This document shows, one piece after another, positions 2,531 to 61,512 of a DNA stretch of 64,000 nucleotides. A program made the translations under genes and the position numbers. The stretch is taken from contig DAOVQB010000002.1 in assembly GCA_030628905.1 (NCBI GenBank), positions 839-64,838 of the forward strand, given 5' to 3'. The stretch's first letter is position 1. Each line of letters begins with the position of its first letter. The notes under the pieces are model-generated. The model saw only the letters and a list, made by a program, of their open reading frames with translations. It was not told where the DNA came from and made no database searches. This stretch comes from Candidatus Eiseniibacteriota bacterium (GTDB taxonomy: Bacteria; Eisenbacteria; RBG-16-71-46; CAIMUX01; WJJG01).

Positions 2531-3358
2531 TTACCGGAACATGCCCTTGATCGCACCCCAGCTGCTGGCCTCGACCGGGCTCTGGCCGCCGAAGTAATCG
2601 ACGAAGGTCCCGATCGCGAGGTCGCACTGCGCACCCGTGGGGTCGCAGCTGTAGTCGAAGGTGTTGAAGACGGTGTTTTCCGTCACGCAACCACCCTCCA
2701 TGAAGGGGAACGGACCAACTTCCGGCTGAGTCCAGAGGTTCAACCCATCGATGCACGGCATGATCTCATCCGAGAAGAAGCCGTTCGACTCGAAGCAGGT
2801 GCCGACTGCGCCAGGCAGAACACCACTCTGGCCGTCCAGCAAACCACCGGCAATACCTTCCCAGGACAGATCACCCACGGCACCAAAAGCCGGGTCCATG
2901 ACGACGCCGCAGACACCCAGGTAGTCCATCGGGAAGCCGATGTGGCCGCCGGGACGGAAGTAGAGATAGTCCTGAGACATGAAGATGACATCGCCGCCGC
3001 CATCCAGAAAGCCGCCCAGCACGGTTTCATCCCCAGTCGTCCAGGTACCGCCCCACCAGTTATCTGCCGTCGTGACCAGAATGAGGGAGTAGGGCGCCAG
3101 GTCAGGCCACGCGCCCGCGGGATCATAAACAATGTCCACGGAGTGGCCAGCGGCCTCCAGAGAGGTCTGGTAGATGGCGGCCTGGTCCGTAAACACCCCC
3201 TCGAGGACCGAGGCGATGAGTGCGGTGGCGCGACCACTAATCTGGTCATCGTACTCGTGGTACGTCCCCTCGTGGTAGCCGACCCTCGCGGTGTTATCCG
3301 CCAGGACTGGTGCCGCCACCAGCGCTAGCAAAGCTAGTGTAACAACGATCTTCCGCAT
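2531..3358 (-). CDS. Secreted protein of unknown function. It has a signal peptide and the C-terminal motif SWGAIKGMFR-COOH.
   Basis: Internal start MRKIVVTLALLALVAAPVLA is preceded by AAGGAG. The sequence is Gly/Asp/Cys-rich. The last 10 residues are shared with the gene at 60841..61512. Confidence 0.7.
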   Translation of the reverse strand: MRKIVVTLALLALVAAPVLADNTARVGYHEGTYHEYDDQISGRATALIASVLEGVFTDQAAIYQTSLEAAGHSVDIVYDPAGAWPDLAPYSLILVTTADNWWGGTWTTGDETVLGGFLDGGGDVIFMSQDYLYFRPGGHIGFPMDYLGVCGVVMDPAFGAVGDLSWEGIAGGLLDGQSGVLPGAVGTCFESNGFFSDEIMPCIDGLNLWTQPEVGPFPFMEGGCVTENTVFNTFDYSCDPTGAQCDLAIGTFVDYFGGQSPVEASSWGAIKGMFR

Positions 3359-3556: not shown

Positions 3557-4768
3557 CTATAAATCCGACTCAACGCGCTGCTCGGGATAGGCCCGGAATC
3601 TGGCTAAAATCTCCTCAATCCTGGTTCGCTCGGCCGGATCTCCGGTCATTCCACGCCGGGCCTCCAGAGCGCTGTAAAGCGTTTCCCTGCTTTCGGGTAG
3701 GCCAAAACGACTCTCTCTGTCCAGGAGTTCGAGCGCCAGGGCAATCTCCTCTGGTTCTCCCTCCCCCAATACCCGCATCAGGCCTGGCTCCGCCAGGCGG
3801 GTCATGAACCACAACTCATAGTAGAAACGTCTGTTATCCAAATCCTCCATCGTGTTCGTGGAATCGGCGATCCCCGTTGTCCCATCCGCGTATTCGGCCA
3901 GGATCAAGGGACGGGCCCGTGGATCCTGCGTGAGAGCCAACCCTTTGAGCGCATCCCACCGAAGTGGACGGTCGGGAGCGGACTCAAACACCCCCCGAAT
4001 CGGCTCGTAGGCAGCCAGTCCTGCCCGCTCGGCGGCATGACGCATCGCCGAGGCTTTGGCCTTCCGGGTCGCCGAGGGATCAACTGCCAGTCGATCCACC
4101 ATCGCCACCAGGGTGTCGGCCGCCCGCTCATCCTTCGAATCGCCCAGCATCGCGATGCCATGCTCAATCCGCTCAGGCACGCCCGAGTGGCAGTGCGCCG
4201 TCATTCTGCGCATAATGTCTTCACTCGCTGAGAGATAGGCCGCTCCTTGCTCCAGGGCAAAGCAGATGCCTTGCTCGAGCGTCCCCGTATCTGCCAGCTC
4301 CAGCATGGCCTTAGCCAATCGCCCGCCTTCTGGCCGCTCACGGTATCCGACTTTCTCGTGCGAGATATACATGACCGTGGCCTGGAGACACGCCCGACAG
4401 GTGCTGGGATCCGTCAGCAAGAAAACCATCTCATCTACTAGAGGAGCCTCCGAGTGGAGCTTGCCTCTGACGATATCCATCAGGATTCCACTGGATGCGG
4501 GGGTCACGGTGGGATTGTCCTTGATGCAGAGATAATGAATCTGATCCCAAGGGACGGTCGTGAAGAACTCGAGCGCCCTCTCAGTCCGCTCCTCCCCCCT
4601 CAGGCTTGGCAGGGAACTGGCGTGCGCACGGTAGCGCGCCATCAACTCGTCCAGACTCTCGTACCGCGACGCCTCATCCTGCGCCCATCCCAGTTGGTTG
4701 GCGCATACCAGCCAGATCCCGACCCAAAACGCGCAACTTGCCTTGCTCACGCAACAGATCTCCTTCAT
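3557..4768 (-). CDS. Hypothetical secreted/lipoprotein-like alpha-helical protein
   Basis: 403 aa. The N-terminus MKEICCVSKASCAFWVGIWLVCANQLGWAQ is signal-like. No recognisable catalytic motif. Confidence 0.55.
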   Translation of the reverse strand: MKEICCVSKASCAFWVGIWLVCANQLGWAQDEASRYESLDELMARYRAHASSLPSLRGEERTERALEFFTTVPWDQIHYLCIKDNPTVTPASSGILMDIVRGKLHSEAPLVDEMVFLLTDPSTCRACLQATVMYISHEKVGYRERPEGGRLAKAMLELADTGTLEQGICFALEQGAAYLSASEDIMRRMTAHCHSGVPERIEHGIAMLGDSKDERAADTLVAMVDRLAVDPSATRKAKASAMRHAAERAGLAAYEPIRGVFESAPDRPLRWDALKGLALTQDPRARPLILAEYADGTTGIADSTNTMEDLDNRRFYYELWFMTRLAEPGLMRVLGEGEPEEIALALELLDRESRFGLPESRETLYSALEARRGMTGDPAERTRIEEILARFRAYPEQRVESDL

Positions 4769-23049: not shown

Positions 23050-24771
23050 TTATCTGACCAACAGCACCCTGCCGCTCTCCCTCAGCCGGCCAGATTCCAA
23101 CCGGTAGAAGTAGCTCCCCGAAACCACCTCCCGGCCCGAACCATCCCGGCCGTCCCAGATCAGCTGGTAATTTCCCGGCAGGTAGTATCCGTCAGTCAAT
23201 GTGCGCACCAGCCCCCCTTTCACATCGAAGATGCGCAAGCTCGTGCGGGCGGCACTCGGGATGCTGAAGCGCAGGTAGGCGGCACTCGTGAGCGGGTTGC
23301 TGCCCTGCACATCCAAGGCAAGCTGGCCGGCATCTGATCCGACCGACTGTTCAGGATTGGTGAGGGCCACATCCAGTAGCGTACTGCTCCCGGCGGTGAT
23401 CACGACGCCCGGAACCGTAAGCGTCTCGTACCCGTTGGCCTCGAAAACAACATCGTATGATCCGGGCGGGAGAAATGCGTGATACCGCCCGTGGCCCGGC
23501 TCGCTGCGGTTGATCTCCCCGTGGTAGAAGGTCACGTTGTCGTAGCTGATGGTGGCTTCCACGGGGTCGCCGGTTACTGAATTGGTCACATGTCCCCAGA
23601 GCGGGATGGATTGTTCGAGCAGCCACACGGTTCCCGGCCAGACCCGCTCGGCTTCGTCCACCGCGCTCGCATGAGAGGGTTGGAATTGTATGTGCGTCTC
23701 AGTTAGGAAGGCGAAGCCTCCCATCATGGCGGTCTGCCACTCGAAGTGCTCACCCTCGGCGCTCGGTGAACGATAGTCCCCCCCGTACGATGAAGCCTGG
23801 GAAAGCGCGATGGCCTGCTGCCGCAGATAGTAGGCGAAGGGATGGTCCCAACAGGCGTACCCGTACAGGACCTCACGGCCGGAGGAGTGGTAGTCGAGGA
23901 CCTTGGCGAAGCGCTGATCCTCGCTCCAGGCCATCATTGCTTGCGTCTCGGCCTCCGAGGCCGGCGAGGGCCCTTTGTAGGTGTTGGAAGTGGGATTCGT
24001 GCTGCCGGCACAAGGGCCCGACCAGCCGAACGGGTAGTTGCGGTTCAGGTCGATCCCGATCCCCCCGGCAACTGGCCGGCGGTTCTTCCGCCACATGTTG
24101 TCCCAGTAATACACATAGTCATACCCATCAGGATTCCAGAGCGGCGCAATCCATATCTCGTGGGAATCCACCAGATTGGTGATGGTCGGATCCGTACCGT
24201 ACAGGGTGGTGAGCTGCTCGATCGCATAGAGCGCCAGCACGGGAGTCACTATCTCCCGGGCATGGTGACAACTGACCATCAGAAATGCGGGCTCATCCTC
24301 TTCCAGTTCGACATTATCGGAGATCTTCACGGCATAGAGGTGATGGCCCTCGTAGGTCGGCTCCAGATCGTAGGCCTCTGTGATGTCCACCATCTGGCAG
24401 ATGGCGGGGTAGTTGTTGGCCACACTGACCATCTCCGCCTCGATCTCGACGAGGTTCGGATAGCCGGGGGGTACACTCTCCCCACCTCCCCGTTCGTCCT
24501 GGATGTCTCGGAAGGGCCGACCCACGGCGATGACCTCCGGGCCGTAGCCGCTCAGGCGCAGGGACTCGAGTTCAGCCACCGAGACGATCAGCTCCAGCGA
24601 ACTGTCGGTAACGCTTCCCTCCAGCACGTCAAATCCTGAGCGCTCCAACTGAATGGCCACTGCTTGAGCATCCGGGTCCTCCACGCGGACGTGTCGCAGT
24701 GGCTCGGCCGCAGCGTTCGAGGCAAAGGTGAAGGCCGCAACGATCAAAAGGGTTAGGATGCTTGTCTGCAT
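23050..24771 (-). CDS. M14 zinc carboxypeptidase with a T9SS-type C-terminal sorting domain
   Basis: Signal peptide MQTSILTLLIVAAFTFASNAAA. HHAREIV zinc motif. The C-terminus (...SLRIFDVKGGLVRTLTDG...GSYFYRLESG...VLLVR) matches a Por_Secre_tail. Confidence 0.85.
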   Translation of the reverse strand: MQTSILTLLIVAAFTFASNAAAEPLRHVRVEDPDAQAVAIQLERSGFDVLEGSVTDSSLELIVSVAELESLRLSGYGPEVIAVGRPFRDIQDERGGGESVPPGYPNLVEIEAEMVSVANNYPAICQMVDITEAYDLEPTYEGHHLYAVKISDNVELEEDEPAFLMVSCHHAREIVTPVLALYAIEQLTTLYGTDPTITNLVDSHEIWIAPLWNPDGYDYVYYWDNMWRKNRRPVAGGIGIDLNRNYPFGWSGPCAGSTNPTSNTYKGPSPASEAETQAMMAWSEDQRFAKVLDYHSSGREVLYGYACWDHPFAYYLRQQAIALSQASSYGGDYRSPSAEGEHFEWQTAMMGGFAFLTETHIQFQPSHASAVDEAERVWPGTVWLLEQSIPLWGHVTNSVTGDPVEATISYDNVTFYHGEINRSEPGHGRYHAFLPPGSYDVVFEANGYETLTVPGVVITAGSSTLLDVALTNPEQSVGSDAGQLALDVQGSNPLTSAAYLRFSIPSAARTSLRIFDVKGGLVRTLTDGYYLPGNYQLIWDGRDGSGREVVSGSYFYRLESGRLRESGRVLLVR

Positions 24772-25262: not shown

Positions 25263-28232
25263 ATGATGGACACAAAGAAGAAACTGATCTGCGCGGCCCG
25301 ACTCGTCGTTCTGCCGGTGCTGCTGATTCTCTGGCCCTTGGAGGTCGCTGCAGACAGCGCCCTGAAGGCATGGTGGGATACCTTCGAGGACAACAACTTG
25401 AACTGCTGGACCATCAATCAGGTGGGTGCCAGCATCGGCATCGACTCCAATATGGCCAACAATGGCATCCGCTCCTTGAGGGTGGTTGGCGCTTCAGGGG
25501 CCGGCCAGTACGCGCGGGCCTACTCACGGAATATCTGGATCGATTTTACACGCGATTACACCGTGCAGTTCGCATTCCGTTACGATAGCTTCCACTGGGA
25601 TCGGTTCCTCATCTTCGGGCACATTCGCTTGGTACTCGATTACCCCAGTCTTCCGGTCTTGTACGACCCCGTGGGGGATAATTCCTTCGTCGGCAACGCG
25701 GTCTCCGGCAATTCGTTCGAATCCTACCTGCCCGATTTGGAGTGGGGCTGGATCACGGTTCACTGCCGGCCTTCGCTGCAGCAATACGAGGTCTTTGTGA
25801 ACGGAACGCACATGGGAACGGTAAACTACCAGGCCACCGTGATCCCCTCACAGCAGTTCTGGTTCGAGGACAATGGTTCACCTACGAACTATCTCAACGC
25901 TTGGTATGACGACTGTACAATCCGAGGCTATGTGAATCCGCAAAACTGCAACTACTCCATCGCCTCGCATTGGGAGGATGCAGAAAACAACTGTGCCATG
26001 TGGGCCCATCCACCCAATGTCCCGTACCATGGCCAATACAGCCGTCCGGGTCATCCGCTGCACGAACCTTGCTGCCCGCCAGGACCCAACGGTCGCTGCA
26101 TGGTGGCATGTCTGCAGATGGTATTCGACCGCTTCGGCGACAACCTCCCCGGAGCCGGCCCTGGGGTCGGCACGGGGCCCCAGGAGGAGATCGAGGCGGC
26201 TGCCAACACCAACGACCGGGTCAACTGCCCCAATGGTGTGTGGACCGGCACGTATCAGGACGACCTGCGCCGCGCGGGGCATTTCTCTTCCAGCACGAAC
26301 CAAGCTGCACTGACGGCGCTGCGCAACCAGTGCCCACCTCCACAGTGTCCCCCGGCTGGCCAAGGCGCCAGCGGGTATAGCTGGCGCGACCTGGGATACG
26401 CGGTTGTCGATTCCATCTGGACGGATCTTGCGCCAGCGGACGCCGACAGTATGGATGCCGGCGCGGCACCCGTTGTGCTCGAGGCACTGATCGGATCGGG
26501 CTATCCGATCATCGCACTCATCAATCCCTCGCAGGGCTATTGCCAGGAGATCGAGGCGGCGGGCTCCGAGGGCACGGTGGATTGCGATAGCATCCCGGAG
26601 AACACCGACTCCGGTCATGCCTGCGTTATCATCGGCTACGACAATGTCGGCAACCAGGGACCGCCACAGCTCCGAAATCCTCACGCGTATCCGGCGTTTC
26701 TCATCCACGATCCAGCGGTCTGCCGCTTTGGATGGATCGGGCAGCAGTATTTCTGGAATCAGGTGTGGACGAGTAAGCGCTTTGCCTTTGCCGCACCTTG
26801 GGAACTGAAGTGGCTATCACCGCCAAGGTGGTGTTACGGGCAGAAGTATAATGGCACGCTCCTTGTGAAATACCCGGGCCCGGAACCGCTGGACGGTTTC
26901 TACTCGGTCGCCAACGCCAAGGCCAAGCTGACACTCACCAATGTAGGGCTTCAGGGTGGAGAGGTTCGGACGCACAACCTGGTCAACATCTCAACGACCG
27001 GCGATTGGCAGTTCAGCACCTGGAAGCTGGCCAACGGGAATTTCGTTCAGGGTGGGAACCTCATCGGGACCGTGGACTACTTGGCCTACGGAACCCTTGC
27101 GCCTGCCGTGTCCTCAACATCGTATGTGGGCTACACGGATGACCTGGGAGGCACGGGGAGTGCAACGAAGGGCCTTACCCTGTGTTTCTTCGTTGACCTC
27201 GATATCGGACACACGGGATGGCCGTACGCGGGCCACTGGTGGTCTGGGGCCGGTGGATCGAGCATCAAGCTAGTCGGCCTGGGCGGCCCCACCCATGAAC
27301 TCTGTGCCACCGTCGGGAATTTCGGAGAGGAGCCAACCCCACCGGGAACGTTCCTGCACTTCTGGTTCGAGGACCCGGGCGCAGCGCAGCGCGCGCCGGG
27401 CGAATACCCGATCGCTGCACTCGAGGTCCCATCGCTCGCCTTTGGGGACACGGTGACACTCGGGCCGGTGCCATGGACCGCCCCACCGGGAAACGTGTTC
27501 GGTGAGCCGCACTTCACAATCTTCACAGCGATCGACTGTCCGGGCGACCCCCCGGAGAGCGACTGGCCGCAGGATGAGAACAACTTCGCCACCCTGAGTG
27601 AATTCCACTGCGAGACTACACCTGGAGAACCGGTGGGAATGTCATTCTGGGTGGAGAATCCGGAACCCACGGCGATGGAGGTCATCCTCCAAGTCGACAA
27701 ACCCGAGGGTGTAGAAGCTTGGGATGTCGCCCTCAGTCTGCCGGTCGGGGAGCCGATCTTCCTCAGTCCATTGGAGATGATTCCTACCGAGGTGACCGTG
27801 ACGCCCACAACTGGTCCAACGGAGGGTTCTATCAGTGTAGAGTGCTTCCTCTACATCCCTGGGGGGGAGCTGGTCCGCGAGACTGGCGGCATTACTCTCA
27901 CGCTGCACCTACCGACGAGTTCAGCTCCTGATGACGGAATGAGTCGCCCGGTCTTTGCGCTCGGCCAGAACCAACCCAACCCCTTTGCTGGTCCGGCGAC
28001 CATCATTCGGTTTGCCACTCCCCGTGCAGGGCATGTGGATCTGCGGGTCTATGACGTGGGCGGCAGGATGGTGCGAACGCTTATTTCGGAGCGGCGTTCA
28101 AGTGGATGGCACGCGACAAGCTGGCCCGGTACAGACGAGCGGGGTCGCAGAGTGGCCAACGGCGTCTACTTCTACCAGCTCGATCTTGACGGCGGCGTGC
28201 AGCGGACGCGTACGATGTTGATCCTCCGATAA
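25263..28232 (+). CDS. Large secreted multidomain protein: N-terminal LamG/ConA-like domain + C39_2-like papain-fold cysteine peptidase + Ig-like regions + T9SS C-terminal domain
   Basis: RBS AAGGGAGG. Signal peptide. GRCMVACLQMVFDRFG (Cys motif) and DSGHACVIIGYDN (His motif). C-terminus NPFAGPATIIRFATPRAGHVDLRVYDVGGRMVRTL...GVYFYQLDLDG...TMLILR. Confidence 0.75.
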   Translation: MMDTKKKLICAARLVVLPVLLILWPLEVAADSALKAWWDTFEDNNLNCWTINQVGASIGIDSNMANNGIRSLRVVGASGAGQYARAYSRNIWIDFTRDYTVQFAFRYDSFHWDRFLIFGHIRLVLDYPSLPVLYDPVGDNSFVGNAVSGNSFESYLPDLEWGWITVHCRPSLQQYEVFVNGTHMGTVNYQATVIPSQQFWFEDNGSPTNYLNAWYDDCTIRGYVNPQNCNYSIASHWEDAENNCAMWAHPPNVPYHGQYSRPGHPLHEPCCPPGPNGRCMVACLQMVFDRFGDNLPGAGPGVGTGPQEEIEAAANTNDRVNCPNGVWTGTYQDDLRRAGHFSSSTNQAALTALRNQCPPPQCPPAGQGASGYSWRDLGYAVVDSIWTDLAPADADSMDAGAAPVVLEALIGSGYPIIALINPSQGYCQEIEAAGSEGTVDCDSIPENTDSGHACVIIGYDNVGNQGPPQLRNPHAYPAFLIHDPAVCRFGWIGQQYFWNQVWTSKRFAFAAPWELKWLSPPRWCYGQKYNGTLLVKYPGPEPLDGFYSVANAKAKLTLTNVGLQGGEVRTHNLVNISTTGDWQFSTWKLANGNFVQGGNLIGTVDYLAYGTLAPAVSSTSYVGYTDDLGGTGSATKGLTLCFFVDLDIGHTGWPYAGHWWSGAGGSSIKLVGLGGPTHELCATVGNFGEEPTPPGTFLHFWFEDPGAAQRAPGEYPIAALEVPSLAFGDTVTLGPVPWTAPPGNVFGEPHFTIFTAIDCPGDPPESDWPQDENNFATLSEFHCETTPGEPVGMSFWVENPEPTAMEVILQVDKPEGVEAWDVALSLPVGEPIFLSPLEMIPTEVTVTPTTGPTEGSISVECFLYIPGGELVRETGGITLTLHLPTSSAPDDGMSRPVFALGQNQPNPFAGPATIIRFATPRAGHVDLRVYDVGGRMVRTLISERRSSGWHATSWPGTDERGRRVANGVYFYQLDLDGGVQRTRTMLILR

Positions 28233-39580: not shown

Positions 39581-39627
39581 AGCCCGGAGTCCTAGGGGCT
39601 CCGGCATTACCATTGGGAGATGTGCAC

Positions 39628-41787
39628 ATGCAGACGCTCGACCTCGCATCTTCCAGTTCCGGAGTCCATCTGATCCGCAAGGAGACGGTTCTGCCAGCCG
39701 GATCCCATGAGGTCTCGGCAGAGATCGTCATCCTCCCGGGTGCAAAACTCGTGATTGAGCCGGAGACGGCACTCCACTTCGCGGCGGGCATCGGTCTCAC
39801 AGTCATGGGCACACTACAGGCCGTCGGATCCGTAGACAAGAAGATCACCTTCGAGGGACAAAGCTGGCCGGGGGTCACGTTCATAGGCTCGGAGATAAAA
39901 GATTCCCACATCGCGCACGCCAGCATTACACGTGCAAGGGGACGGGCCTGGGCGGGCGAGTTTAGCCAGCACGGCATTCCCGTCTATGGCATGGCATCTA
40001 CGGATACGAATGTTGTTGGCGCCGCCATCCAGATACACGGCAGCAGCACCTGTCTGATCCTACTCACAGACATGCTCTTCAAAGGCAATGGCTTCAATGC
40101 AGATGGCGGTGCGGTTTTCGTCAAGCAATCCACCGTAGAATTCAATCGCTGTTCGTTTGAGTCCAACTTCGCCGGCAACGGCGGGGCCCTGCATTTGGTC
40201 AACTCCTCTGCTGTACTCGAATCATGCACGTTCGCCGAAAATGGCAGTGAGGGAGCGACTGGAACCGGTGGTGCCATCTTCGCAAGTGATTCCTCGGGCC
40301 ATATTGGGTTGTGCAAGTTCAATAGAAACGCCAGTTACGACGGTGCGGCTATCGTCTGCCACAACTCGACCCCCTCGATCCGATCCTGCACCTTCAACGA
40401 AAACAGTGCCATCAATAATGGCGGTGCGATCAAGTGTACTGGTACGTCCATGCCGCAGATACTGCGCTGTTCGTTTGCGGGGAATAAGGCCGGCGCTTGT
40501 GGCGGTGCAATCCACGTCACAATCGACGGCCGGCGGCCGTTACAAATGAGCCGCAGCACATTCGAGGACAACACCTCCGGACAAGAGGGCGGGGCTCTCT
40601 TCTGTGATGCCGATTCACATGCACAGCTCTCGGGTTGTCGTTTCCTGCGCAATTGTGTCCAGAAGAAAGCCCACTCCGGCGGTGGTGGGGCCATCTATTG
40701 TGAAAAGGGTTCGCATCTCAACATTGACTCCAGCGGCTTCGAGGACAATCAGGCAGTGCGCGGTGGAGCCATCGCCTTCAGCAACGCCGAATCCGTGACT
40801 TCCGCGGGCACTACATTGGTCACGCTCAAGGACGCATTCTTCAAGCGCAACCTAGCGTCAGCAATGGGAGGAGCGCTATGCGTCAGCCAGGACAGCAGTC
40901 TTGACATAAGCGCCAATTGCGCATTCCTCGACAACGAGGCGCTACAGGCAGGAGGTGCCATCTCCAGTGGCAAAGGATCCAAGGTGCTTGTCTGTGCTAC
41001 GGAGTTCCACCGCAACAAGGCTCCATCCGGCGGCGCTGTGGATTTACGCGGACAACGGAGTCGGTTGGATGCATGCATTTTCAAAGACAATGAAGCAGGA
41101 AGGACCGGCGGTGCCATCGCCTGCCATTCAACAATGCACGTCCACGCGTGTCAATTCGAGCGCAACGTAGCGCTAGAGATCGGAGGAGGAGCAATCTGGT
41201 GCATAGACACAACGACGATAATTGACACTTGTTCATTCACCAAGAACAGATCGGACGGATCCCTGGTCGGCGGAGCAATCCGATGCCAGGATACGGATGG
41301 AAAGTATCAGACAAGCAACACCTTCTCCAAGAATGTTCCCAACAACGTCTCCTATCAAAAAACATCCTATCCAACCCCAGTTGGACTCAAGTATAAGCGT
41401 ATATTCGAGGACTGTTGGATTGTGACGGCCTACTACGGGAGCCCGCATCATCCGCGTGTTACAGCCATCCGGGGCCTGCGCGACAGGTTGCTTGTATCTC
41501 GCTTCGCAGGGCCTCCAATGACCCTGATCGATTCTCTCTATCGCTCGGTTGGCAAGACCACTATGGGGCAATGGTGGATCTCTAAGCTGGAGGAGCCAGG
41601 CAGCCAACTGCCGCGAGCCGTGACTAGACCGCTCTGTGATGTATTGTATCGCGTCTCTGGGACCTCGCGCCAAGCACCGTCACGCGGGCATGTAAGGGCC
41701 CGCGATGCGCGAGGATTTACGTGTGATCGAGATGCCGCCTCTTTCCCAAAACCTCCCTCAGCATCTGGCCGGTGTGAGACGACTTGA
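39628..41787 (+). CDS. Right-handed parallel beta-helix repeat protein with a distinct ~150-aa C-terminal domain
   Basis: About 20 repeats of Nx(A/S)xxGGAI(xC). No obvious signal peptide. The C-terminus carries CWIVTAYYGSPHHPRVTAIRGLRDRLL. Alternative TTG start at 39613. Confidence 0.7.
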   Translation: MQTLDLASSSSGVHLIRKETVLPAGSHEVSAEIVILPGAKLVIEPETALHFAAGIGLTVMGTLQAVGSVDKKITFEGQSWPGVTFIGSEIKDSHIAHASITRARGRAWAGEFSQHGIPVYGMASTDTNVVGAAIQIHGSSTCLILLTDMLFKGNGFNADGGAVFVKQSTVEFNRCSFESNFAGNGGALHLVNSSAVLESCTFAENGSEGATGTGGAIFASDSSGHIGLCKFNRNASYDGAAIVCHNSTPSIRSCTFNENSAINNGGAIKCTGTSMPQILRCSFAGNKAGACGGAIHVTIDGRRPLQMSRSTFEDNTSGQEGGALFCDADSHAQLSGCRFLRNCVQKKAHSGGGGAIYCEKGSHLNIDSSGFEDNQAVRGGAIAFSNAESVTSAGTTLVTLKDAFFKRNLASAMGGALCVSQDSSLDISANCAFLDNEALQAGGAISSGKGSKVLVCATEFHRNKAPSGGAVDLRGQRSRLDACIFKDNEAGRTGGAIACHSTMHVHACQFERNVALEIGGGAIWCIDTTTIIDTCSFTKNRSDGSLVGGAIRCQDTDGKYQTSNTFSKNVPNNVSYQKTSYPTPVGLKYKRIFEDCWIVTAYYGSPHHPRVTAIRGLRDRLLVSRFAGPPMTLIDSLYRSVGKTTMGQWWISKLEEPGSQLPRAVTRPLCDVLYRVSGTSRQAPSRGHVRARDARGFTCDRDAASFPKPPSASGRCETT

Positions 41788-44700
41788 TCGTTGCTAGTGT
41801 TTCCGGTGTTCCACGCGCAACCACAGTGCCACCGCCGTCTCCGCCTTCCGGTCCGAGGTCGATCACCCAATCGGCCCTCTTGACAACATCCGGATGATGC
41901 TCGATGACGATGACCGTATGCCCGCCATCGACGAGTCGATCGAAGACGGACAACAGCCGGACTGTGTCGTCGAAATGCAGACCTGTGGTCGGCTCATCAA
42001 ATAGATATAGATTACCGAGCGCAGCTTTTTCCGCACATCCGCCCCGATCCGTAATCCCACGCCCGACAGGGCGGGAAACCCCACCCCTTCTACAGCCGGC
42101 ATTCTGGCTCCGGCTCAGCGGAGCGTCCTTTCCGCCAATCAGTTCTGTGACCAGCTTGAGGCGTTGGGACTCTCCCCCCGAGAGGGTCGTGGCTGGCTGG
42201 CCAAGCCGGAGATATCCCAGCCCAACTTCCTCCAGGATCAGCAGCGGCTGCACGACTCCATCCGTGTCACCGAAGACCCCCAATGCCTCGCTGACCGTCA
42301 TTTCCAGTACATCCGCGATCGACGCTCCGTGGTAGGTGCACTCGAGCGTCTCTTCGTTGTAGCGCTTCCCATGACACTCCTCACAGCGAATCCAGATATC
42401 CGCGAGGAAATCCATGCTCACCTTGATGCGCCCCATCCCTTGGCATCTCTCGCAGCGCCCACCTCGTGTGTTGAAAGAGAACCGGGCCTTGCGATATCCG
42501 CGTGCCTGCGCGCAATCCGTCTCCGCAAAGAGACCGCGAATATGATCAAAGATGCCTGAGTACGTGGCCGGATTACTGGCGGGCGTGGATCCGATCGGAG
42601 TCTGATCCAGACTTAGCACCCTCCGAAAGCGCTCCATTCCCTCAAGACCCGCACAGCCAACCGGTGCCCCTCTATCACAGGAAGCCATTAGTACATCAAA
42701 TATAAGGGAGGATTTGCCGCTGCCTGACACACCAGTGATCGCGATTATCCCGCCAGATGGGATCTCAATGTCGAAGCCGTGTAAGTTGTTTGCGGATGCC
42801 CGGGTGATTGTAATGCCTTCTCCAAGGCAGCGGCGCCTTTCTGAAACCGGTATGGCACTCTCCTCTCTTAGATAGTACCCGGTCCGCGAGGCAGGATTGT
42901 CCATGATAGCATCAACGCTTCCCTCGGCGACAATCCGCCCACCGTGTCTGCCGCCGCCTGGCCCGAGATCGATCACATAGTCGGCCGCTCGAATCACGCT
43001 GGCGTCATGCTCCACGACGACTACTGTGTTCTCTGCAGCGCACAGGCCCTTCAGGGTCTTGATCAGTCTCTGTGTATCACAAGCGTGTAGCCCAATGGTG
43101 GGCTCATCTAAAACATACGTGACCCCGCAGAGTCCGGACCCGAGCTGCGTTGCCAGGCGGACACGCTGGGCTTCACCCCCAGATAGCGTGGCGGCACTGC
43201 GATCGAGGCTCAGATACCCCAGACCGACATCCACCAAGGACTGGAGCCGTTTGGCAACCTCCTGGCGGATCTCCGCTGTGACACTCAACTGGCGGTGATC
43301 CACTCCGTGATCAGCCGGCTCGGCTTCCAGGGCGGAAAGCATCCGGAGAGTAGCCGCAATGGACATGCTGCTTAGCGCCGCGATGTTGAGACCGGCAAAG
43401 CGCACGCAGCGCGCAGCGCGGTTGAGCCGCTCTCCGTGGCACTCGGGACAGACCTCATCCTTCATCACACCCCTCATGGCCTCGCCTCTGTGATCGGCAT
43501 GCTTGCGCTCATATTCCTCGTTGACATAGTGCGAGAATCCACGCCATGTTGTCTCCCAGGTGTATTGGCCCTCCCGCTTCTCGCGCTTGAAATGCCATGT
43601 CACCTGGTAGGCCTTCTCGCCAGTTCCGTACATGGCGATCTTGCGCGCCCGTGCATCGAGCTGCTTCCAGGGAACATGTAAGTCAATCCCGCAGTCCGCC
43701 TCGACTGCGGTCAATATCGCAAGATGCTGCCCCTTGGGATCTCCGTAGTATCTCCCTGTCTTATGCCCGGAGATGGCCCCCTCGAAAAGGGACCGGTTCG
43801 GATCCGTAATCAATCTGTCTGGGTCACAGACCGTGATCACTCCAAGCCCCTTGCAGGACGGACACGCACCCTGGTGCTGATTGAAGGAGAACATCCTGGC
43901 CATCAAGCTCTCACAGTCCGGGCAGTGGGCCCTTCCGGCTCTGGCATAGAGGAGTCGGTAGTACTCGTAGATCTCGGTTATGGTCCCCACCGTGGAGCGT
44001 GGATTCCGCGACGCCACCCTCTGACTGATCGCAATCGTGGGGGTCAGCCCCGAGGCCTCCTCGATCTGTGCTTCTGCAGATCTGCCCAGAAAACGGCGTG
44101 CAAAGGTTGGGAGGGACTCCCTGAAGCGCCTCTGCCCCTCAGCAAAAATGGTATCAAATGCGAGGGAAGATTTGCCGCTGCCCGAGACCCCGGTGATCAC
44201 GGTTATACGGTTCGCTGGAATGCTGACATCGATCCCCTTCAGATTGTGTGTCGAGATACCCCCCAAGCGGATTGGAGGAGGAGTGTAATCAGCATGAGGA
44301 GTGTGAGCAGTGTAGTGGGTAGTGCCTGGGGATTCGATGGTGCGCGCGGAGTAAGGTTCCGTATGCCGCTTGCTGGGAGCCTTCGGCGTGGACCGCAATT
44401 GGCAGGGCGCGGATTCGATTCCCTGCCACCCTCTCGCCCTGAGAGCTGCCCCGGTGTGGGAAGCCTCAACCGCAGATATCGCTTCCGGTGTTCCCGCTGC
44501 TACCAGCTTCCCGCCACAATCGCCACCCTCCGGTCCCAGGTCAATGACCCAGTCGGCCACTTTCACAAATTCCAGGTTGTGCTCAACTGCGATGACCGTG
44601 TTCCCGCTGTCCACCAGACGGTTGAGTGCATCAAGCAGGATTTCAATATCCGCCAGATGTAGCCCCGTTGTCGGCTCATCTAGAATGTAGAGCGTTTTCC

Positions 44701-47269
44701 CCGTGGATGGCCGGCCCAGTTCAGAAGCCAATTTGATCCGTTGGGCCTCTCCACCAGACAGCGTGGTGGATGGCTGTCCAAGGGACAGATAGCCCAACCC
44801 GACATCGCGCATGGCACACAGAATACGAGCCATCTTGGGTTGATCAGCGAAGAAGCGGTATGCCTCCTCGACAGGCAGCTCCAACACATCGAGAATACTC
44901 TTGCCTTTGTGATGGATCGTGAGTGTATCTTCGTTGAAGCGTCGTCCGCCGCACTCCTCGCAGACGACGTCAACATCACCCATGAAATGCATCCCGATCA
45001 CCTGAACGCCGGCGCCCTGACATGCCTCACACCGTCCGCCCTTCACATTGATTGAGAACCGGCCCTTCTTCCAGCCGCGCTGCTTCGACTCCGGTAGCGA
45101 GGCAAATAGCGCACGCACATGGTCGAACAGGTTCGTGTAGGTTGCAGGATTGCTCCGCGGTGTCCGTCCGATCGGGAACTGATCGATGTCGATGATCTTG
45201 TCGATGAACTCCGCCCCCCGGATCCCGACATGGCGACCCGGCTGCACACTCGCTCCATGTAGGCTACGGCGCAGGGATCGCGCCAGGATGCCCTCAATTA
45301 AGGTCGATTTGCCTGAGCCGGACACGCCGGTAACGACGTTGAACGCGCCCAACCGAAACGACACATCGATTCCCTTCAGATTGTGTTCACTCGCACCAAG
45401 GACTTCCAGGAACCGGCCATTTCCCGGCCGCCGCTTCGCGGGAATTGGGATCTGGCTCTCACCTGACACGTAGGCTCTCGTACGGCTCATCCTCAGGGAA
45501 TCCGTACTGAGGAGATCCCCCGCCTTCCCGCTGAAGAGGATCCGGCCTCCCTTATCCCCAGCCCCGGGGCCCATATCGACTAGCCAGTCGGCACTTCGAA
45601 TCGTGTTCTCATCGTGTTCCACAACTAAGACGGTATTGCCGTTGTCACGAAGCAAGGCCAGTATCTCCAATAGGCGTCGGTTGTCTCGTGGATGCAAGCC
45701 GATAGAGGGTTCGTCCAGAACATAGAGAATCCCACGCAGGCGTGTCCCCGCCTGCGTGGCCAGCCTAACTCGTTGAGCTTCGCCACCAGATAGTGTCGTG
45801 GACCGCCGATTGAGCGTCAGATGGCCCAGGCCGAGCTGCTGCAATAGAATGGTGCGCTTCTGCATCTCACGGACAATCGGCCCCCCTATGGGAGCATCGG
45901 AGGGCGCAAAGTGCAGCCTGTCCAAGAAGGATGCCAACGCATCCAGCGACATCGCGTCTATGTCGGAGATCGTATGACCCTCAAATGTTACGGACAATGC
46001 CTCCTTACGCAGACGGGTTCCTTGGCAGGCCCCACATGGCACCGATCTGGCAAAGCGCAGGATGTTCTTGTTCCGGTGACGCTTCAGGATCTCTTCCATG
46101 ATCGGGACAATTCCCTTGTAATAACCCTCCTCCCGCGGCTTGGGCGTGATCCCGCTCCATTTCATGCGGGATTCAAGCGGGTGCTTCCCAAAGGGAATCA
46201 TGATTCTATCGGAGCCATGGAGCACGACCTGCTGTTGCTCTTTCGTCAGTTCGCTCCAAGGTATGTCCACACTGAACCCGTGTGCCTGGCAGACCTGATT
46301 GAGTATGTCCAGTGTTACCTGGGAGTAGACGATGTATCCGCTATCCGTGGTCAACGCGAGCGCTCCCTGGCGAAGAGTTCGGCCTGGATCAGCGATGAGG
46401 AGTTCCGGGGCGATGCGATCCTGTACACCAAGCCCCCTGCATGACGGGCAGGCGCCATATTGGGAATTGAACGAGAATAACCGGGGTCCGATTTCGGGAA
46501 ATCCTGCGCCGCACTGCGGGCATGTGTTTGCTGATGAGAATCGCTCGATGCGCTCATTGCACAGAACCTTAAGGACGCGTCCACCTATGCGCAGACTCTG
46601 TTCTATGCCTCTCAGAAGAGTATCATGGTTCCCAACGGACATGGTGATGTGTCCGACCACGACTTCGATTTCGTGCACCTTCTGCGATTCCGGAATAGGC
46701 GTAGGATCAGTAGGCAGGAGTTCGCCGTCGATGCGAACCTCCGAGAATCCATCGCGACGGAGTCTCTCGAGTTCCCTGCGGTACTGTCCCCTGTGACCCT
46801 CTACGATGGGTGCCAAAAGGAGGATCTCCTCGCCCGCAAAGCGCTTGAGCAGCGCCTCGCTGATGCGCTCTGGACTCAGCGCGGCAAGGAGCGCACCGCA
46901 TTCCGGGCAATGCGCCACACCCAGCTTGCCAAAGAGAAGTCGAAGGAAATCGTAGAGCTCAGTCAGCGTACCAAGCGTTGATCGTGGATTGCGAACCACG
47001 GTCTTCTGGTCGATGGAAAGCGTGGGTGACAGCCCGCTGATGTGGTCAACCGCAGGGCGTCCCAGCTTGCCGAGGAACTGCCGGGCATGAGAGGAAAAGG
47101 ATTCTAGATAGCGCCGCTGTCCCTCCCTGCAGATCGTGTCGAACGCCAGGGAGGACTTCCCTGAACCGGAAACCCCTGTAATCACTATCAGGGCATGATG
47201 AGGGAGAGCAACATCAACCGCCTGAAGATTGTGTTCCCGTGCCCCCCGAATGATTATTTGTCCGTTCAC
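41717..47269 (-). CDS. uvrA: Tandem double UvrA (two complete excinuclease ABC subunit A units in one 1850-aa polypeptide)
   Basis: Unit 1 starts MNGQIIIRGAREHNLQAVDVALP...GVSGSGKSSLAFDTI. Unit 2 restarts at IRLGGISTHNLKGIDVSIPANRITVITGVSGSGKSSLAFDTI. There are four Walker A motifs and four LSGGE signatures. Each unit ends with the WV(I/V)DLGPEGG tail. Confidence 0.9.
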   Translation of the reverse strand: MNGQIIIRGAREHNLQAVDVALPHHALIVITGVSGSGKSSLAFDTICREGQRRYLESFSSHARQFLGKLGRPAVDHISGLSPTLSIDQKTVVRNPRSTLGTLTELYDFLRLLFGKLGVAHCPECGALLAALSPERISEALLKRFAGEEILLLAPIVEGHRGQYRRELERLRRDGFSEVRIDGELLPTDPTPIPESQKVHEIEVVVGHITMSVGNHDTLLRGIEQSLRIGGRVLKVLCNERIERFSSANTCPQCGAGFPEIGPRLFSFNSQYGACPSCRGLGVQDRIAPELLIADPGRTLRQGALALTTDSGYIVYSQVTLDILNQVCQAHGFSVDIPWSELTKEQQQVVLHGSDRIMIPFGKHPLESRMKWSGITPKPREEGYYKGIVPIMEEILKRHRNKNILRFARSVPCGACQGTRLRKEALSVTFEGHTISDIDAMSLDALASFLDRLHFAPSDAPIGGPIVREMQKRTILLQQLGLGHLTLNRRSTTLSGGEAQRVRLATQAGTRLRGILYVLDEPSIGLHPRDNRRLLEILALLRDNGNTVLVVEHDENTIRSADWLVDMGPGAGDKGGRILFSGKAGDLLSTDSLRMSRTRAYVSGESQIPIPAKRRPGNGRFLEVLGASEHNLKGIDVSFRLGAFNVVTGVSGSGKSTLIEGILARSLRRSLHGASVQPGRHVGIRGAEFIDKIIDIDQFPIGRTPRSNPATYTNLFDHVRALFASLPESKQRGWKKGRFSINVKGGRCEACQGAGVQVIGMHFMGDVDVVCEECGGRRFNEDTLTIHHKGKSILDVLELPVEEAYRFFADQPKMARILCAMRDVGLGYLSLGQPSTTLSGGEAQRIKLASELGRPSTGKTLYILDEPTTGLHLADIEILLDALNRLVDSGNTVIAVEHNLEFVKVADWVIDLGPEGGDCGGKLVAAGTPEAISAVEASHTGAALRARGWQGIESAPCQLRSTPKAPSKRHTEPYSARTIESPGTTHYTAHTPHADYTPPPIRLGGISTHNLKGIDVSIPANRITVITGVSGSGKSSLAFDTIFAEGQRRFRESLPTFARRFLGRSAEAQIEEASGLTPTIAISQRVASRNPRSTVGTITEIYEYYRLLYARAGRAHCPDCESLMARMFSFNQHQGACPSCKGLGVITVCDPDRLITDPNRSLFEGAISGHKTGRYYGDPKGQHLAILTAVEADCGIDLHVPWKQLDARARKIAMYGTGEKAYQVTWHFKREKREGQYTWETTWRGFSHYVNEEYERKHADHRGEAMRGVMKDEVCPECHGERLNRAARCVRFAGLNIAALSSMSIAATLRMLSALEAEPADHGVDHRQLSVTAEIRQEVAKRLQSLVDVGLGYLSLDRSAATLSGGEAQRVRLATQLGSGLCGVTYVLDEPTIGLHACDTQRLIKTLKGLCAAENTVVVVEHDASVIRAADYVIDLGPGGGRHGGRIVAEGSVDAIMDNPASRTGYYLREESAIPVSERRRCLGEGITITRASANNLHGFDIEIPSGGIIAITGVSGSGKSSLIFDVLMASCDRGAPVGCAGLEGMERFRRVLSLDQTPIGSTPASNPATYSGIFDHIRGLFAETDCAQARGYRKARFSFNTRGGRCERCQGMGRIKVSMDFLADIWIRCEECHGKRYNEETLECTYHGASIADVLEMTVSEALGVFGDTDGVVQPLLILEEVGLGYLRLGQPATTLSGGESQRLKLVTELIGGKDAPLSRSQNAGCRRGGVSRPVGRGITDRGGCAEKAALGNLYLFDEPTTGLHFDDTVRLLSVFDRLVDGGHTVIVIEHHPDVVKRADWVIDLGPEGGDGGGTVVARGTPETLATIKSSHTGQMLREVLGKRRHLDHT

Positions 47270-60840: not shown

Positions 60841-61512
60841 ATGAAACATCTATGGATCGGAGTCGCCTGCTTGGCGCTGCTCGCGGGAACCGCGGTAGCG
60901 GACATAGTCGACGACTTCGAAGACGGCAACATGGACGAATGGACCATGACTCCTGACCCAGTTGGGTATCAGATCACTGCCGCTGCCGCGCACGATGGCG
61001 CTCTGGGCTGCGAGGTCTACAGCACGCGGACCGGCTGGCTATGGCGGGATGACCCCCAAGCTCACTGCGGCCAGGGCAACACTGTGGCCTGTTGGACCAA
61101 GCTGAACGTGTCCAGCTGGACCCGCAACTACTTTGGTTTCGGTGCCTCCGCGGGGGGTTGCTACAGCGCTGTGCTGGGTGACAATACCAACACGCTCATT
61201 ATCCAGTACAATGCTGGCTTTGGGTACGAGACCATAGCTGATACCCCATTCGTTTTCATCAACGGCTACTGGTACCTCCTCGAGGTAGACTGGGTAGTTG
61301 GTGGAACCATCACTGCCAATCTCTATGACAGTGACGGCGTGACCCTCCTGGCCACCGTAACTGCCGTTGACAATCGCATTACCGAGGGCGGTGTGGCCAT
61401 GCGGACATTCGGCGACTCGTATGATCCAGGCTGCTGGGACACGATCACGCGCGATGGTCTGGTCCCGACCGAGTCGAACACTTGGGGCTCGATCAAGGCA
61501 ATGTTCCAGTAG
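60841..61512 (+). CDS. Small secreted LamG/ConA-like protein with the C-terminal motif TWGSIKAMFQ-COOH
   Basis: AGGAGG RBS. Signal peptide MKHLWIGVACLALLAGTAVA. Same C-terminal 10-mer class as the gene at 2531..3358. Confidence 0.7.
   Translation: MKHLWIGVACLALLAGTAVADIVDDFEDGNMDEWTMTPDPVGYQITAAAAHDGALGCEVYSTRTGWLWRDDPQAHCGQGNTVACWTKLNVSSWTRNYFGFGASAGGCYSAVLGDNTNTLIIQYNAGFGYETIADTPFVFINGYWYLLEVDWVVGGTITANLYDSDGVTLLATVTAVDNRITEGGVAMRTFGDSYDPGCWDTITRDGLVPTESNTWGSIKAMFQ

Follow-up and report, generated by a model that had tools for sequence, protein, structure and literature searches.

A short C-terminal peptide shared by unrelated exported proteins of FCB bacteria is a candidate envelope sorting or anchoring signal

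What does it mean when two exported proteins that have little but a signal peptide in common end in nearly the same ten residues? The question arises from two genes in the window analyzed here, a DNA stretch of 64,000 nucleotides, for which the initial annotation had proposed a common C-terminal sorting or secretion tag. The features concerned are the following.

2531..3358, minus strand: gene 1, encoding an exported protein of 275 aa without known fold that carries the tail.
3299..3358, minus strand: signal peptide of gene 1, MRKIVVTLALLALVAAPVLA, with cleavage before D, read directly from the sequence.
2534..2581, minus strand: tail module of gene 1, SPVEASSWGAIKGMFR, with the core decapeptide at 2534..2563 and the stop codon at 2531..2533.
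60841..61512, plus strand: gene 2, encoding an exported ConA/CBM66-like lectin-fold protein of 223 aa that carries the tail.
60841..60900, plus strand: signal peptide of gene 2, MKHLWIGVACLALLAGTAVA, with cleavage before D, read directly from the sequence and kept across 17 homologues.
61462..61509, plus strand: tail module of gene 2, VPTESNTWGSIKAMFQ, with the core decapeptide at 61480..61509 and the stop codon at 61510..61512.

The product of gene 1 is identical in sequence to NCBI MCK4303774.1 (KAY24_06015; P0001) from a Candidatus Eisenbacteria MAG, and that of gene 2 is identical to P0008. Both proteins carry classical type I signal peptides, which end in …PVLA↓D in gene 1 and …TAVA↓D in gene 2; that of gene 1 has a basic n-region, a hydrophobic core and a V-L-A cleavage motif, and is kept in orthologues. 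The gene 1 product ends in SWGAIKGMFR and the gene 2 product in TWGSIKAMFQ, and in both genes the motif lies directly before the stop codon, as had been noted. BLASTP of one product against the other found two alignable parts only, the signal peptides and the C-terminal 18 residues (9/18 identical, E 3e-4); together with the ORF calls, this confirms the view of two exported proteins that share a tail and are otherwise unalignable except for their signal peptides. The shared decapeptide is present as described, but the element proved to be longer, with P-(V/T)-E about five residues upstream (SPVEASSWGAIKGMFR and VPTESNTWGSIKAMFQ). A six-frame scan of the window with WG.[ILVM][KR]..[FYLM] found these two sites only.

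Recurrence of the motif on other proteins had been set beforehand as the test of the tag, and it was found on at least 145 ORFs, which come from at least 90 genomes and fall into 67 unrelated clusters. The codon pattern for WGxIKx(L/M)(Y/F)R plus stop matched at least 120 loci, spread over at least 90 species-representative genomes; the census used codon-restricted DNA patterns biased to high-GC codons (ATC, AAG), and its counts are lower bounds. A codon-reversed control pattern gave chance-like matches only. Clustering of 119 carriers yielded the 67 unrelated clusters, with several carriers per genome (up to 9 among the matches listed). When a tail profile was searched against 1.84 billion proteins, 352 representatives reached E≤0.001. 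Pfam analysis of the 67 representatives revealed diverse carrier folds, including beta-helix, propellers, lectin-like sandwich, CBM20, LTD and CHRD.

These data bear on the simplest alternative, that the two window proteins resemble each other by chance or share the last strand of a common domain. The tail-only pairwise E value of just 3e-4 would fit chance resemblance. However, the external scans place the match far beyond chance, the carrier folds are diverse, no domain HMM is shared, and conservation among the carriers ends about 18 residues from the C-terminus. The AlphaFold model of gene 2 is a beta-sandwich at residues 21-204 with pLDDT above 90, matched in Foldseek by CBM66 and other lectin-type sandwiches, from which the tail is detached as a low-confidence helix with pLDDT below 50. 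Laminin_G_3 is a weak Pfam match on this protein, and no Pfam or NCBIfam family matched the gene 1 product, whose AlphaFold model (pLDDT 40, from 6 sequences) is unusable. The chance or common-strand reading is thus refuted, with practically no likelihood left to it; a common domain was rejected on BLASTP, fold diversity and the AlphaFold model, and the expectation that the motif would not be such a strand holds. Orthologues of both window genes at 40-66% identity retain the tail, which argues that it is under selection; six homologues of gene 1 have it, one via a frameshifted contig.

A known family was also considered and rejected, given that the tail has no Pfam, NCBIfam, PDB or literature match. 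Specifically, no model in Pfam or NCBIfam 20.0 covers the tail in the two window proteins or the 67 representatives, a PDB profile search with the tail gave 0 matches, and a literature search on the motif, on sorting and secretion in Eisenbacteria and on choice-of-anchor proteins found nothing on the tail. The tail is widespread and apparently undescribed, on hundreds of unrelated secreted FCB proteins.

Export is a common property of the carriers. Signal-peptide-like N-termini are present in 112 of 118 complete carriers; under the same rule, a crude one, they occur in 87% of carriers vs 27% of other ORFs at the same loci (odds ratio 18, p 8e-33), bearing out the enrichment predicted for a sorting tag. 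Some carriers have a lipobox and are lipoproteins. The passengers are surface or extracellular-type modules such as lectins, CBMs, beta-helix enzymes and adhesin domains. Nearly all are MAG proteins, and their taxon labels are confined to the FCB (Fibrobacteres-Chlorobi-Bacteroidetes) superphylum, with Eisenbacteria, Krumholzibacteriota, Latescibacterota, Gemmatimonadota, Ignavibacteria/Kapaibacteria and some Bacteroidota represented; cultivable carriers are Hymenobacter species, namely Hymenobacter artigasi and H. siberiensis (WP_168672423.1 / WP_216685804.1), and Melioribacter.

The sequence logo of the tail reads P-V/T-E-x-x-S/T-W-G-x-I/V-K-x-L/M-Y/F-R-COOH over ~16-18 residues; with its free C-terminus, the peptide is written …PVEESTWGAIKALYR-COOH. 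Positions left free in the search pattern are still conserved: S/T in 92% at -10, E in 48% at -13 and P in 46% at -15. W, G, K and the terminal R are near-invariant across phyla and the 67 clusters; the Lys at -5 is 99-100% conserved, in part forced by the searches, and the terminal residue is Arg in at least 92%. Two orthologues of gene 2, P0018 and P0020, have Arg in place of the Lys. A stop-free pattern run on metagenomes was followed directly by a stop codon in 114 of the 123 matches listed (93%), with 0 internal matches; of the 130 genome pattern matches listed, a true stop terminates 128, and in 124 cases the match is the end of an open frame of at least 100 codons. In a minority of carriers, 1-6 further residues follow the R, or copies of the tail occur in tandem, internally or N-terminally, so a free carboxylate would not be absolutely required. 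In P0033 and P0041 (six cluster members of identical length), the lipobox of the paralogues gives way to a copy of the tail directly behind the signal peptide. The tandem copies and the copy after the signal peptide favor a docking or anchor module, and the sequence pattern suggests that the tail may work as a docking peptide rather than as a sorting signal of the classical, cleaved kind.

The exact C-terminal position in 93% of cases would also suit a degron or processing tag for a periplasmic protease or chaperone, rather than a localization signal, and PDZ-type tail-specific proteases are generally known to read such terminal tags. We regard this as very improbable. A degron is hard to rationalize on 67 families of stable-looking extracellular modules, kept across phyla, and the terminal Arg is unlike the apolar ends that Prc/Ctp-type proteases generally prefer. 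Moreover, no S41 or PDZ gene was enriched among the neighbors scanned, and the exchange of the tail for anchoring signals points to localization.

In P0025 and P0026, homologues of gene 2, a PEP-CTERM (PF07589, above threshold) occupies exactly the alignment columns of the tail; these matches also serve as the positive control for the PEP-CTERM scan, in which the profile (PF07589 / TIGR02595) gave no match on the two window proteins at E≤1 and was not among the 24 Pfam, nor the 25 most-matched of 32 NCBIfam, families of the 67 representatives. FlgD_ig C-terminal domains end paralogues of tail-bearing beta-helix and other proteins, while 0 of the 67 representatives combine a T9SS or FlgD C-terminal domain with the tail. 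Some paralogues in one array are without the tail altogether. NCBIfam matches among the carriers include choice-of-anchor J and E, DNRLRE and ScyF (a PEP-CTERM protein), with NF038128 (choice-of-anchor J; 2 members, E 1e-25), NF033208 (choice-of-anchor E), NF033679 (DNRLRE) and TIGR05002 found among the 67 representatives; carriers also match rhombosortase- or myxosortase-dependent M36 models. The 'choice-of-anchor' families of NCBIfam are passenger families with several alternative C-terminal anchors. By these profile matches, the tail passengers belong to families with alternative C-terminal anchors, and the tail is predicted to occupy the functional slot of PEP-CTERM, of FlgD/T9SS-type CTDs and, in one family, of an N-terminal lipid anchor.

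Such substitutions raise the possibility of a minimal T9SS signal, in which the tail is read by the T9SS or a PorV/PorP-like shuttle instead of a folded CTD. The T9SS, like the carriers, is confined to FCB (PMC12398890), and several CTD types with separate adaptors are found together in one cell (PMC9143113, PMC12618676). The same genomes, including the window, encode proteins with FlgD-type CTDs, and paralogues have such a CTD in the tail's stead. In the window these are two peptidases, 23050..24771 (minus strand) and 25263..28232 (plus strand), which had been set apart from the tail proteins as bearing Por_Secre_tail domains. Their distinct, folded T9SS-type CTDs are upheld but correspond to FlgD_ig (PF13860), above threshold in Pfam, rather than to Por_Secre_tail as such; CHU_C matches weakly. 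With these FlgD_ig matches as a positive control, no folded CTD matching TIGR04183, TIGR04131, PF18962, PF13860 or PF13585 was found in the 67 representatives, and no T9SS or FlgD HMM touches the tail. T9SS substrates are folded CTDs recognized in a shaped PorV/SprA pocket (PMC10994853), which a peptide of 10-18 residues cannot fill. N-terminal and tandem copies are unfit for a translocon signal, and PEP-CTERM replaces the tail in homologues as well. We therefore consider reading by the T9SS decidedly unlikely.

The protease or transporter gene expected to co-occur with the tail did not appear in the gene neighborhoods. When 2,969 ORFs from 120 loci were clustered all against all, only generic families emerged (histidine kinases, Ser/Thr kinases and ABC ATPases), and Pfam analysis of 114 immediate neighbors gave FlgD_ig (7), TPR (3) and Peptidase_C25 (2), with nothing recurrent. 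Orthologues of gene 1 and gene 2 differ in gene context, and no exosortase was seen in the carrier gene neighborhoods examined. The Hymenobacter carrier lies among housekeeping genes. One lipoprotein array is headed by a putative outer-membrane barrel of 698 aa that recurs nowhere else. The window annotation, inspected for secretion machinery, holds only metabolism, RND efflux, a UvrA-like ATPase and a Chlam_PMP repeat protein.

Another reading is a covalent tether, in which the Lys at -5 would be cross-linked to peptidoglycan or acylated and the protein thereby fixed in the envelope. K-x-(L/M)-(Y/F)-R recalls the …K-Y-R-K end of Braun's lipoprotein, the Lys is almost fully conserved, though partly by force of the searches, and linkage through a side chain would allow tandem or near-terminal positions. 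However, the tail ends in Arg and has its Lys at -5, in contrast to the C-terminal Lys of an Lpp-type tether, and P0018 and P0020 dispense with the Lys. The passengers are typical surface or extracellular modules, and YkuD L,D-transpeptidase was not enriched among the neighbors scanned. Covalent attachment of this kind has very little likelihood.

Rather, the tail is probably a portable signal by which FCB diderms sort or anchor proteins in the envelope, a reading that rests on sequence comparisons. The proposal of a C-terminal sorting or secretion tag as a candidate is supported by the portability of the tail, its enrichment on putatively exported proteins and its apparent swaps with known signals. 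Because no receptor or machinery for the tail was found, we infer its mechanism. First, judging from sequence features, Sec would export the carrier, which would lose its N-terminal signal peptide. The passenger would then fold, leaving the tail exposed on a flexible Gly/Pro-rich linker, with which the AlphaFold model is consistent. Finally, one common partner, possibly a dedicated receptor, a sorting enzyme or a defined envelope component, would bind W, G, K and the terminal R, and would retain the passenger at the cell surface or direct it there. That W-G…K…R stays strictly invariant from phylum to phylum speaks for a single, specific partner.

A self-sufficient interfacial anchor would need no such partner: the tail would lie as a short amphipathic helix on a membrane leaflet or LPS, without receptor or enzyme. 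Its geometry would have S/T as N-cap, W, I, L/M and Y/F on one face, and K and R flanking. Both window models draw the tail as a helix, with low confidence, and the helical hydrophobic moment of the 9-mer is 0.58, above ~80% of permutations, a measure that does not discriminate helix from strand. The composition resembles the membrane-targeting sequences of FtsA and MinD, as generally known; tandem copies would add avidity, and the N-terminal copy stands in place of a lipobox. On the other hand, a net Wimley-White interfacial energy of ~1.1 kcal/mol for the 9-mer is weak for a single anchor, W, G, K and R of the tail are near-invariant whereas generic amphipathic anchors allow much sequence drift, and lipid binding has no need of the exact C-terminal preference. 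A purely interfacial anchor thus seems unlikely, and we favor a portable signal with a specific partner.

The prediction of cell-surface proteins makes daily use of C-terminal sorting signals, and each of LPXTG, PEP-CTERM and T9SS CTDs opened the way to a dedicated machinery. Because no Pfam or NCBIfam model of the tail exists, its carriers, which amount to hundreds of protein clusters, are now annotated as 'hypothetical' or by their passenger domain only, and their localization is invisible to secretome predictions. A simple tail profile would improve annotation at once in poorly known, mostly uncultured phyla and could, through phylogenetic profiling, lead to the partner machinery. The occurrence of the tail in cultivable Hymenobacter species makes the question open to experiment. 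A 16-residue tag that directs or tethers envelope proteins could also serve as a tool.

Among known systems, PEP-CTERM/exosortase resembles the tail in several ways: the element forms the very end of Sec-exported proteins, often of the choice-of-anchor type, a single genome has many carriers that are unrelated to one another, and a Pro/Glu motif lies at the equivalent position (P-V/T-E vs P-E-P). However, the tail lacks the ~20-residue transmembrane stretch and the Arg-rich cluster of PEP-CTERM: after S/T there are only 9 residues (W-G-x-I-K-x-L-Y-R), with a Lys mid-way and a single terminal Arg instead of a basic cluster, and its taxonomic range is restricted to FCB lineages. LPXTG, GlyGly-CTERM, MYXO-CTERM and PGF-CTERM are likewise short C-terminal signatures common to unrelated exported proteins of one genome. 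In these signals, a hydrophobic membrane-spanning segment and a basic tail follow the signature motif; the tail has neither, no transmembrane segment is possible in it, and no sortase-type tripartite NCBIfam model matched it.

With T9SS CTDs (type A, TIGR04183; type B, TIGR04131; FlgD_ig-type), the tail shares the combination of an N-terminal Sec signal peptide, which both window proteins and 112/118 carriers have, and a C-terminal element, as well as surface or extracellular passengers and an FCB distribution, and the two are mutually exclusive alternatives in paralogues. Yet those CTDs are folded beta-sandwiches of 70-100 residues recognized by shape (PMC10994853), whereas the tail has 16-18 residues, is unfolded or helical in the gene 2 model and has no HMM similarity to them. 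The OMP beta-signal (BAM) and the C-terminus of chaperone-usher pilins (penultimate Tyr) resemble it in the aromatic residue next to the C-terminus, the upstream Gly and the apparent importance of the free end. In contrast to a terminal aromatic residue on a beta-barrel, the tail ends in Arg, its passengers are soluble domains rather than barrels or pilins, and its hydrophobic spacing does not suit G-x-x-aromatic-x-aromatic.

Amphipathic anchors such as the C-termini of PBP5/6 and the MTS of MinD and FtsA share with the tail its small size and terminal position, the Lys/Arg that flank aromatic and aliphatic residues, the helix, which is predicted, and the capacity to be repeated, but they are sequence-variable and family-specific, whereas the tail is near-invariant over 67 families of exported proteins from several phyla. 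It is possible, and we propose it tentatively, that the tail belongs to a pathway of its own in FCB, neither T9SS nor exosortase, in which a dedicated receptor or enzyme would recognize a short peptide that is unfolded and lacks a transmembrane segment; the tail would then represent a third architectural class of diderm C-terminal sorting signal.

The initial annotation had described two otherwise unrelated signal-peptide proteins sharing a C-terminal decapeptide, and both ORFs were confirmed in the window sequence; the decapeptide belongs to a longer shared peptide (~16-18 residues; hereafter, the tail):

2531..3358, minus strand: gene 1, 275 aa, C-terminus …GGQSPVEASSWGAIKGMFR, then stop
60841..61512, plus strand: gene 2, 223 aa, C-terminus …DGLVPTESNTWGSIKAMFQ, then stop

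The gene 1 product is identical to NCBI MCK4303774.1 (KAY24_06015) from a Candidatus Eisenbacteria MAG. Both proteins carry classical type I signal peptides (gene 1, …PVLA/D; gene 2, …TAVA/D) and, as had been claimed, BLASTP similarity between them is limited to these and to the C-terminal 18 residues (9 identities, E 3e-4). A six-frame regular-expression search of the whole 64 kb found the WGxIKxx(F/Y) pattern at these two sites only. Neither product belongs to a Pfam or NCBIfam family, the sole match being a sub-threshold Laminin_G_3 on gene 2. The tail is kept by all orthologues (40-66% identity in the gene 1 set, 47-61% in the gene 2 set), both sets giving the consensus P-(V/T)-E-x-x-(S/T)-W-G-x-(I/V)-K-x-(L/M)-(F/Y)-R-COOH. 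The gene 1 homologue P0007 (L007:519-668(+)), whose called end is unrelated, is only an apparent exception, because its contig is frameshifted; the tail, …AVEETSWGSIKNLYK, lies in another frame. AlphaFold models residues 21-204 of gene 2 as a ConA/CBM66-like beta-sandwich (pLDDT >90; Foldseek matches, CBM66 and lectins) and places the tail, residues 209-223, outside the fold as a low-confidence helix (pLDDT <50). In this one usable model, the tail is predicted to be detached from its passenger fold.

Directly upstream of gene 1 lies a 403-aa ORF without a Pfam match (3557..4768, minus strand), which adjoins gene 1 also in a second assembly (L001), not in more distant orthologues. Elsewhere in the window, a 1850-aa ORF (41717..47269, minus strand), more or less a doubled paralogue of UvrA, has two UvrA-type domain sets (UvrA_inter, UvrA_DNA-bind and several P-loops of ABC ATPases), and a 724-aa protein of Chlam_PMP (Chlamydia polymorphic-membrane-protein) repeats (39613..41787, plus strand; E 9e-30) is probably another surface protein.

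Other genomes also carry the motif: scanning one genome per GTDB species with a degenerate DNA pattern (W-G-x-I-K-x-(L/M…)-(F/Y)-R-stop, its ATC and AAG codons being fixed) yielded at least 120 loci. Since the fixed codons in the DNA patterns are high-GC, such counts are lower bounds, with low-GC lineages under-sampled. A true stop codon ends 128 of the 130 matches listed; TGG, also permitted by the pattern at that position, accounts for just 2, one of them the sole Planctomycete match listed. In 124 of the 128 true-stop matches listed, the stop closes a reading frame of 100 codons or more, or the frame reaches the locus edge. Moreover, positions that the pattern does not force are conserved among the matches listed: S/T at -10 (92%), small residues at -4 (80%), E at -13 (48%), P at -15 (46%), V/T/A at -14 and C at -18 (23%). 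The same stop-ended pattern had 5 matches in IMG/VR contigs, every one closing a frame of at least 117 codons; a codon-order-reversed control pattern gave 2 matches, with upstream frames of 21 and 5 codons. The five viral-classified contigs (L008-L012; tail ORFs of 117-279 codons, e.g. …SGWGRIKSLYR) are either prophage or misclassified DNA of bacteria of the Fibrobacteres-Chlorobi-Bacteroidetes (FCB) group, or else phage-borne carriers.

Terminal position was assessed without bias by running a stop-free WGxIKALYR pattern against metagenome contigs. The stop follows immediately in 114 of the 123 matches listed, and after one codon in 6 and three codons in 3 (1-3 extra codons after Arg in ~7%); none of the 123 is an internal copy. 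In addition, searching 1.84 billion representatives (50% identity) with a 30-column profile built solely from the window families' tails retrieved 352 proteins at E≤0.001; nearly all of the best 146 new matches aligned at the extreme protein end, with up to 6 residues beyond Arg in some profile matches. Irregular arrangements occur in one lipoprotein family, with tandem C-terminal copies in P0039, P0043 and P0057, four copies in P0037 (the first being the best), two-domain fusions in P0038 and P0048 whose internal copy precedes a Cys, a W-S variant, and some paralogues lacking any tail. Together, the extra residues and the tandem and internal copies indicate that a free carboxylate is strongly preferred, not indispensable. 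The tail is an autonomous module in behaviour.

An operon-like array (L256:3454-14023; GCA_029262235.1, JAJCZU010000004.1) is headed by a 698-aa putative outer-membrane beta-barrel protein (end …FSVQF, no Pfam match) with no counterpart in any other retrieved locus. Of the ~nine paralogous lipoproteins that follow, three lack the tail and six have the W-S variant (WSDVKGLFR); two of these lipoproteins fuse two domains and have a tail copy internally.

The genome loci hold at least 145 tail ORFs of 130-600 aa. By a crude rule, 112 of the 118 complete tail ORFs listed have a signal-peptide-like N-terminus; with the same rule and starts limited to within 60 codons, the proportion was 87% for tail ORFs versus 27% for the remaining ORFs of these loci (odds ratio 18, p 8e-33), the enrichment that the initial annotation had suggested testing. 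Stripped of signal peptide and tail, 119 carriers among the matches listed fell into 67 BLASTP clusters, whose representatives match Pfam Beta_helix, NosD, pectate lyase, LTD, NHL, PD40, FG-GAP, CHRD, CBM_20, CBM96, Cleaved_Adhesin, CARDB, an InhA-like MAM domain and others, with a T9SS (type IX secretion system) or FlgD C-terminal domain in none of the 67. NCBIfam returned choice-of-anchor J and E, DNRLRE, ScyD/E, ScyF (a PEP-CTERM protein) and rhombosortase- or myxosortase-dependent M36 peptidase models; no NCBIfam model covers the tail itself in these representatives.

By record taxon labels, Candidatus Eisenbacteria form the largest carrier group among the matches listed, the others being Krumholzibacteriota, Latescibacterota, Gemmatimonadota, Ignavibacteria/Melioribacter/Kapaibacterium, 'Fibrobacteraceae'-labelled MAGs and Bacteroidota, the latter including one cultured isolate, Hymenobacter artigasi (WP_168672423.1, 'hypothetical protein' in RefSeq). 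At least 90 assemblies have carriers, up to 9 each among the matches listed in this codon-restricted sample, and tandem paralogue arrays occur at L038, L065, L110 and L256. Short and portable, the tail is conserved across phyla, nearly always lies at the C-terminus and occurs on proteins that have signal peptides and many different folds.

Two carrier groups have features of their own. A ~140-aa family without a Pfam match (signal peptide, one Ig/fn3-like domain with '…W.T..E….F.VER…Y.Y.D…Y.YRLK..D.DG…S..V.V', tail …RTWGSIKAMFR; e.g. L102:6824-7273(+), also L014, L019, L024, L053, L063, L070, L071, L081, L085, L093, L094, L099 and L118) is conserved in Ignavibacteria, Kapaibacteria, Chlorobi-labelled MAGs and cultured Hymenobacter (WP_168672423.1). 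Its gene adjoins Maf in four Ignavibacteria loci and Ham1/RdgB in Hymenobacter, both house-cleaning NTP pyrophosphatases. Beta-helix carriers at L037, L042, L055, L061, L078, L100, L116, L125 and L130 have C-x-x-C directly before the tail (e.g. …CPSCTSPVEDSSWGTIKSIYR, …CDACGSPVHRSSWGRIKSMYR), a motif that might cap the passenger domain as a disulfide or metal site; Cys is enriched at -18 to -21 across the tail carriers listed.

Some relatives of carriers end in known signals instead. In the gene 2 homologue alignment, …FDTI(T/S)R closes the globular domain; after it, the most distant homologues, P0025 and P0026, have PEP-CTERM, the exosortase sorting signal (PF07589, above gathering score), in exactly the columns occupied in the others by P-(T/V)-E…WGxIKxxFR. 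Within the genome loci, proteins that share 28-39% identity with beta-helix and other tail carriers terminate in a FlgD_ig-type C-terminal domain (CTD; …SGVYFYRL…KMILIQ; e.g. L039:841-3954). Two window peptidases have the same type of CTD:

23050..24771, minus strand: M14 carboxypeptidase
25263..28232, plus strand: 989-aa peptidase

A single genome thus encodes C-termini of both kinds. Most members of the lipoprotein family have a lipobox; in P0033 and P0041, a type I signal peptide is followed immediately by E…SWGSIKAMYR in the lipobox position, on top of the C-terminal copy, an arrangement that is not an assembly artefact because six cluster members have identical length. In these comparisons, the tail and either PEP-CTERM, a FlgD-type CTD or (in one family) a lipid anchor exclude and replace each other.

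We propose a plausible mechanism in which Sec export would come first, a common partner would then bind the tail, and this partner would keep the passenger in, or guide it to, the envelope or the surface. The tail could instead act by generic lipid binding; however, W, G, K and R are nearly invariant, which speaks for a single specific partner, and the 9-mer has an interfacial energy of just ~1.1 kcal/mol and a helical moment above no more than ~80% of permutations. A link to T9SS is compatible with the FCB-restricted distribution but fits poorly with the exchange between tail and PEP-CTERM, and with the finding (PMC10994853) that the translocon reads CTDs in their folded form, in a shaped pocket of PorV/SprA. 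The co-occurring partner gene envisaged by the initial annotation did not emerge: nothing recurs among 2,969 locus ORFs grouped by clustering or, by Pfam, among 114 immediate neighbours, gene contexts differ among orthologues, and the rest of the window is devoted to metabolism, efflux and regulation. Enzymes acting on sorting signals are normally encoded elsewhere, and a partner-less neighbourhood is usual.

The tail is absent from Pfam (models to 2025), NCBIfam 20.0 (June 2026) and the PDB, and full-text searches of PMC and bioRxiv, by motif and by Eisenbacteria sorting or secretion, did not find it. It falls outside the established classes because the defining features of each fail: unlike PEP-CTERM and other tripartite signals it has no transmembrane segment, unlike T9SS CTDs no folded domain, and neither class gives an HMM match; in contrast to the OMP beta-signal its last residue is Arg and its passengers are soluble, and it lacks the terminal Lys of the Lpp-type tether. 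What it has in common with all four is a terminal signature on unrelated exported proteins. On the strength of sequence comparison, we rate the tail as a putative C-terminal sorting or anchoring signal, known in kind and a member of no known class, and consider the chance of a new pathway behind it substantial.
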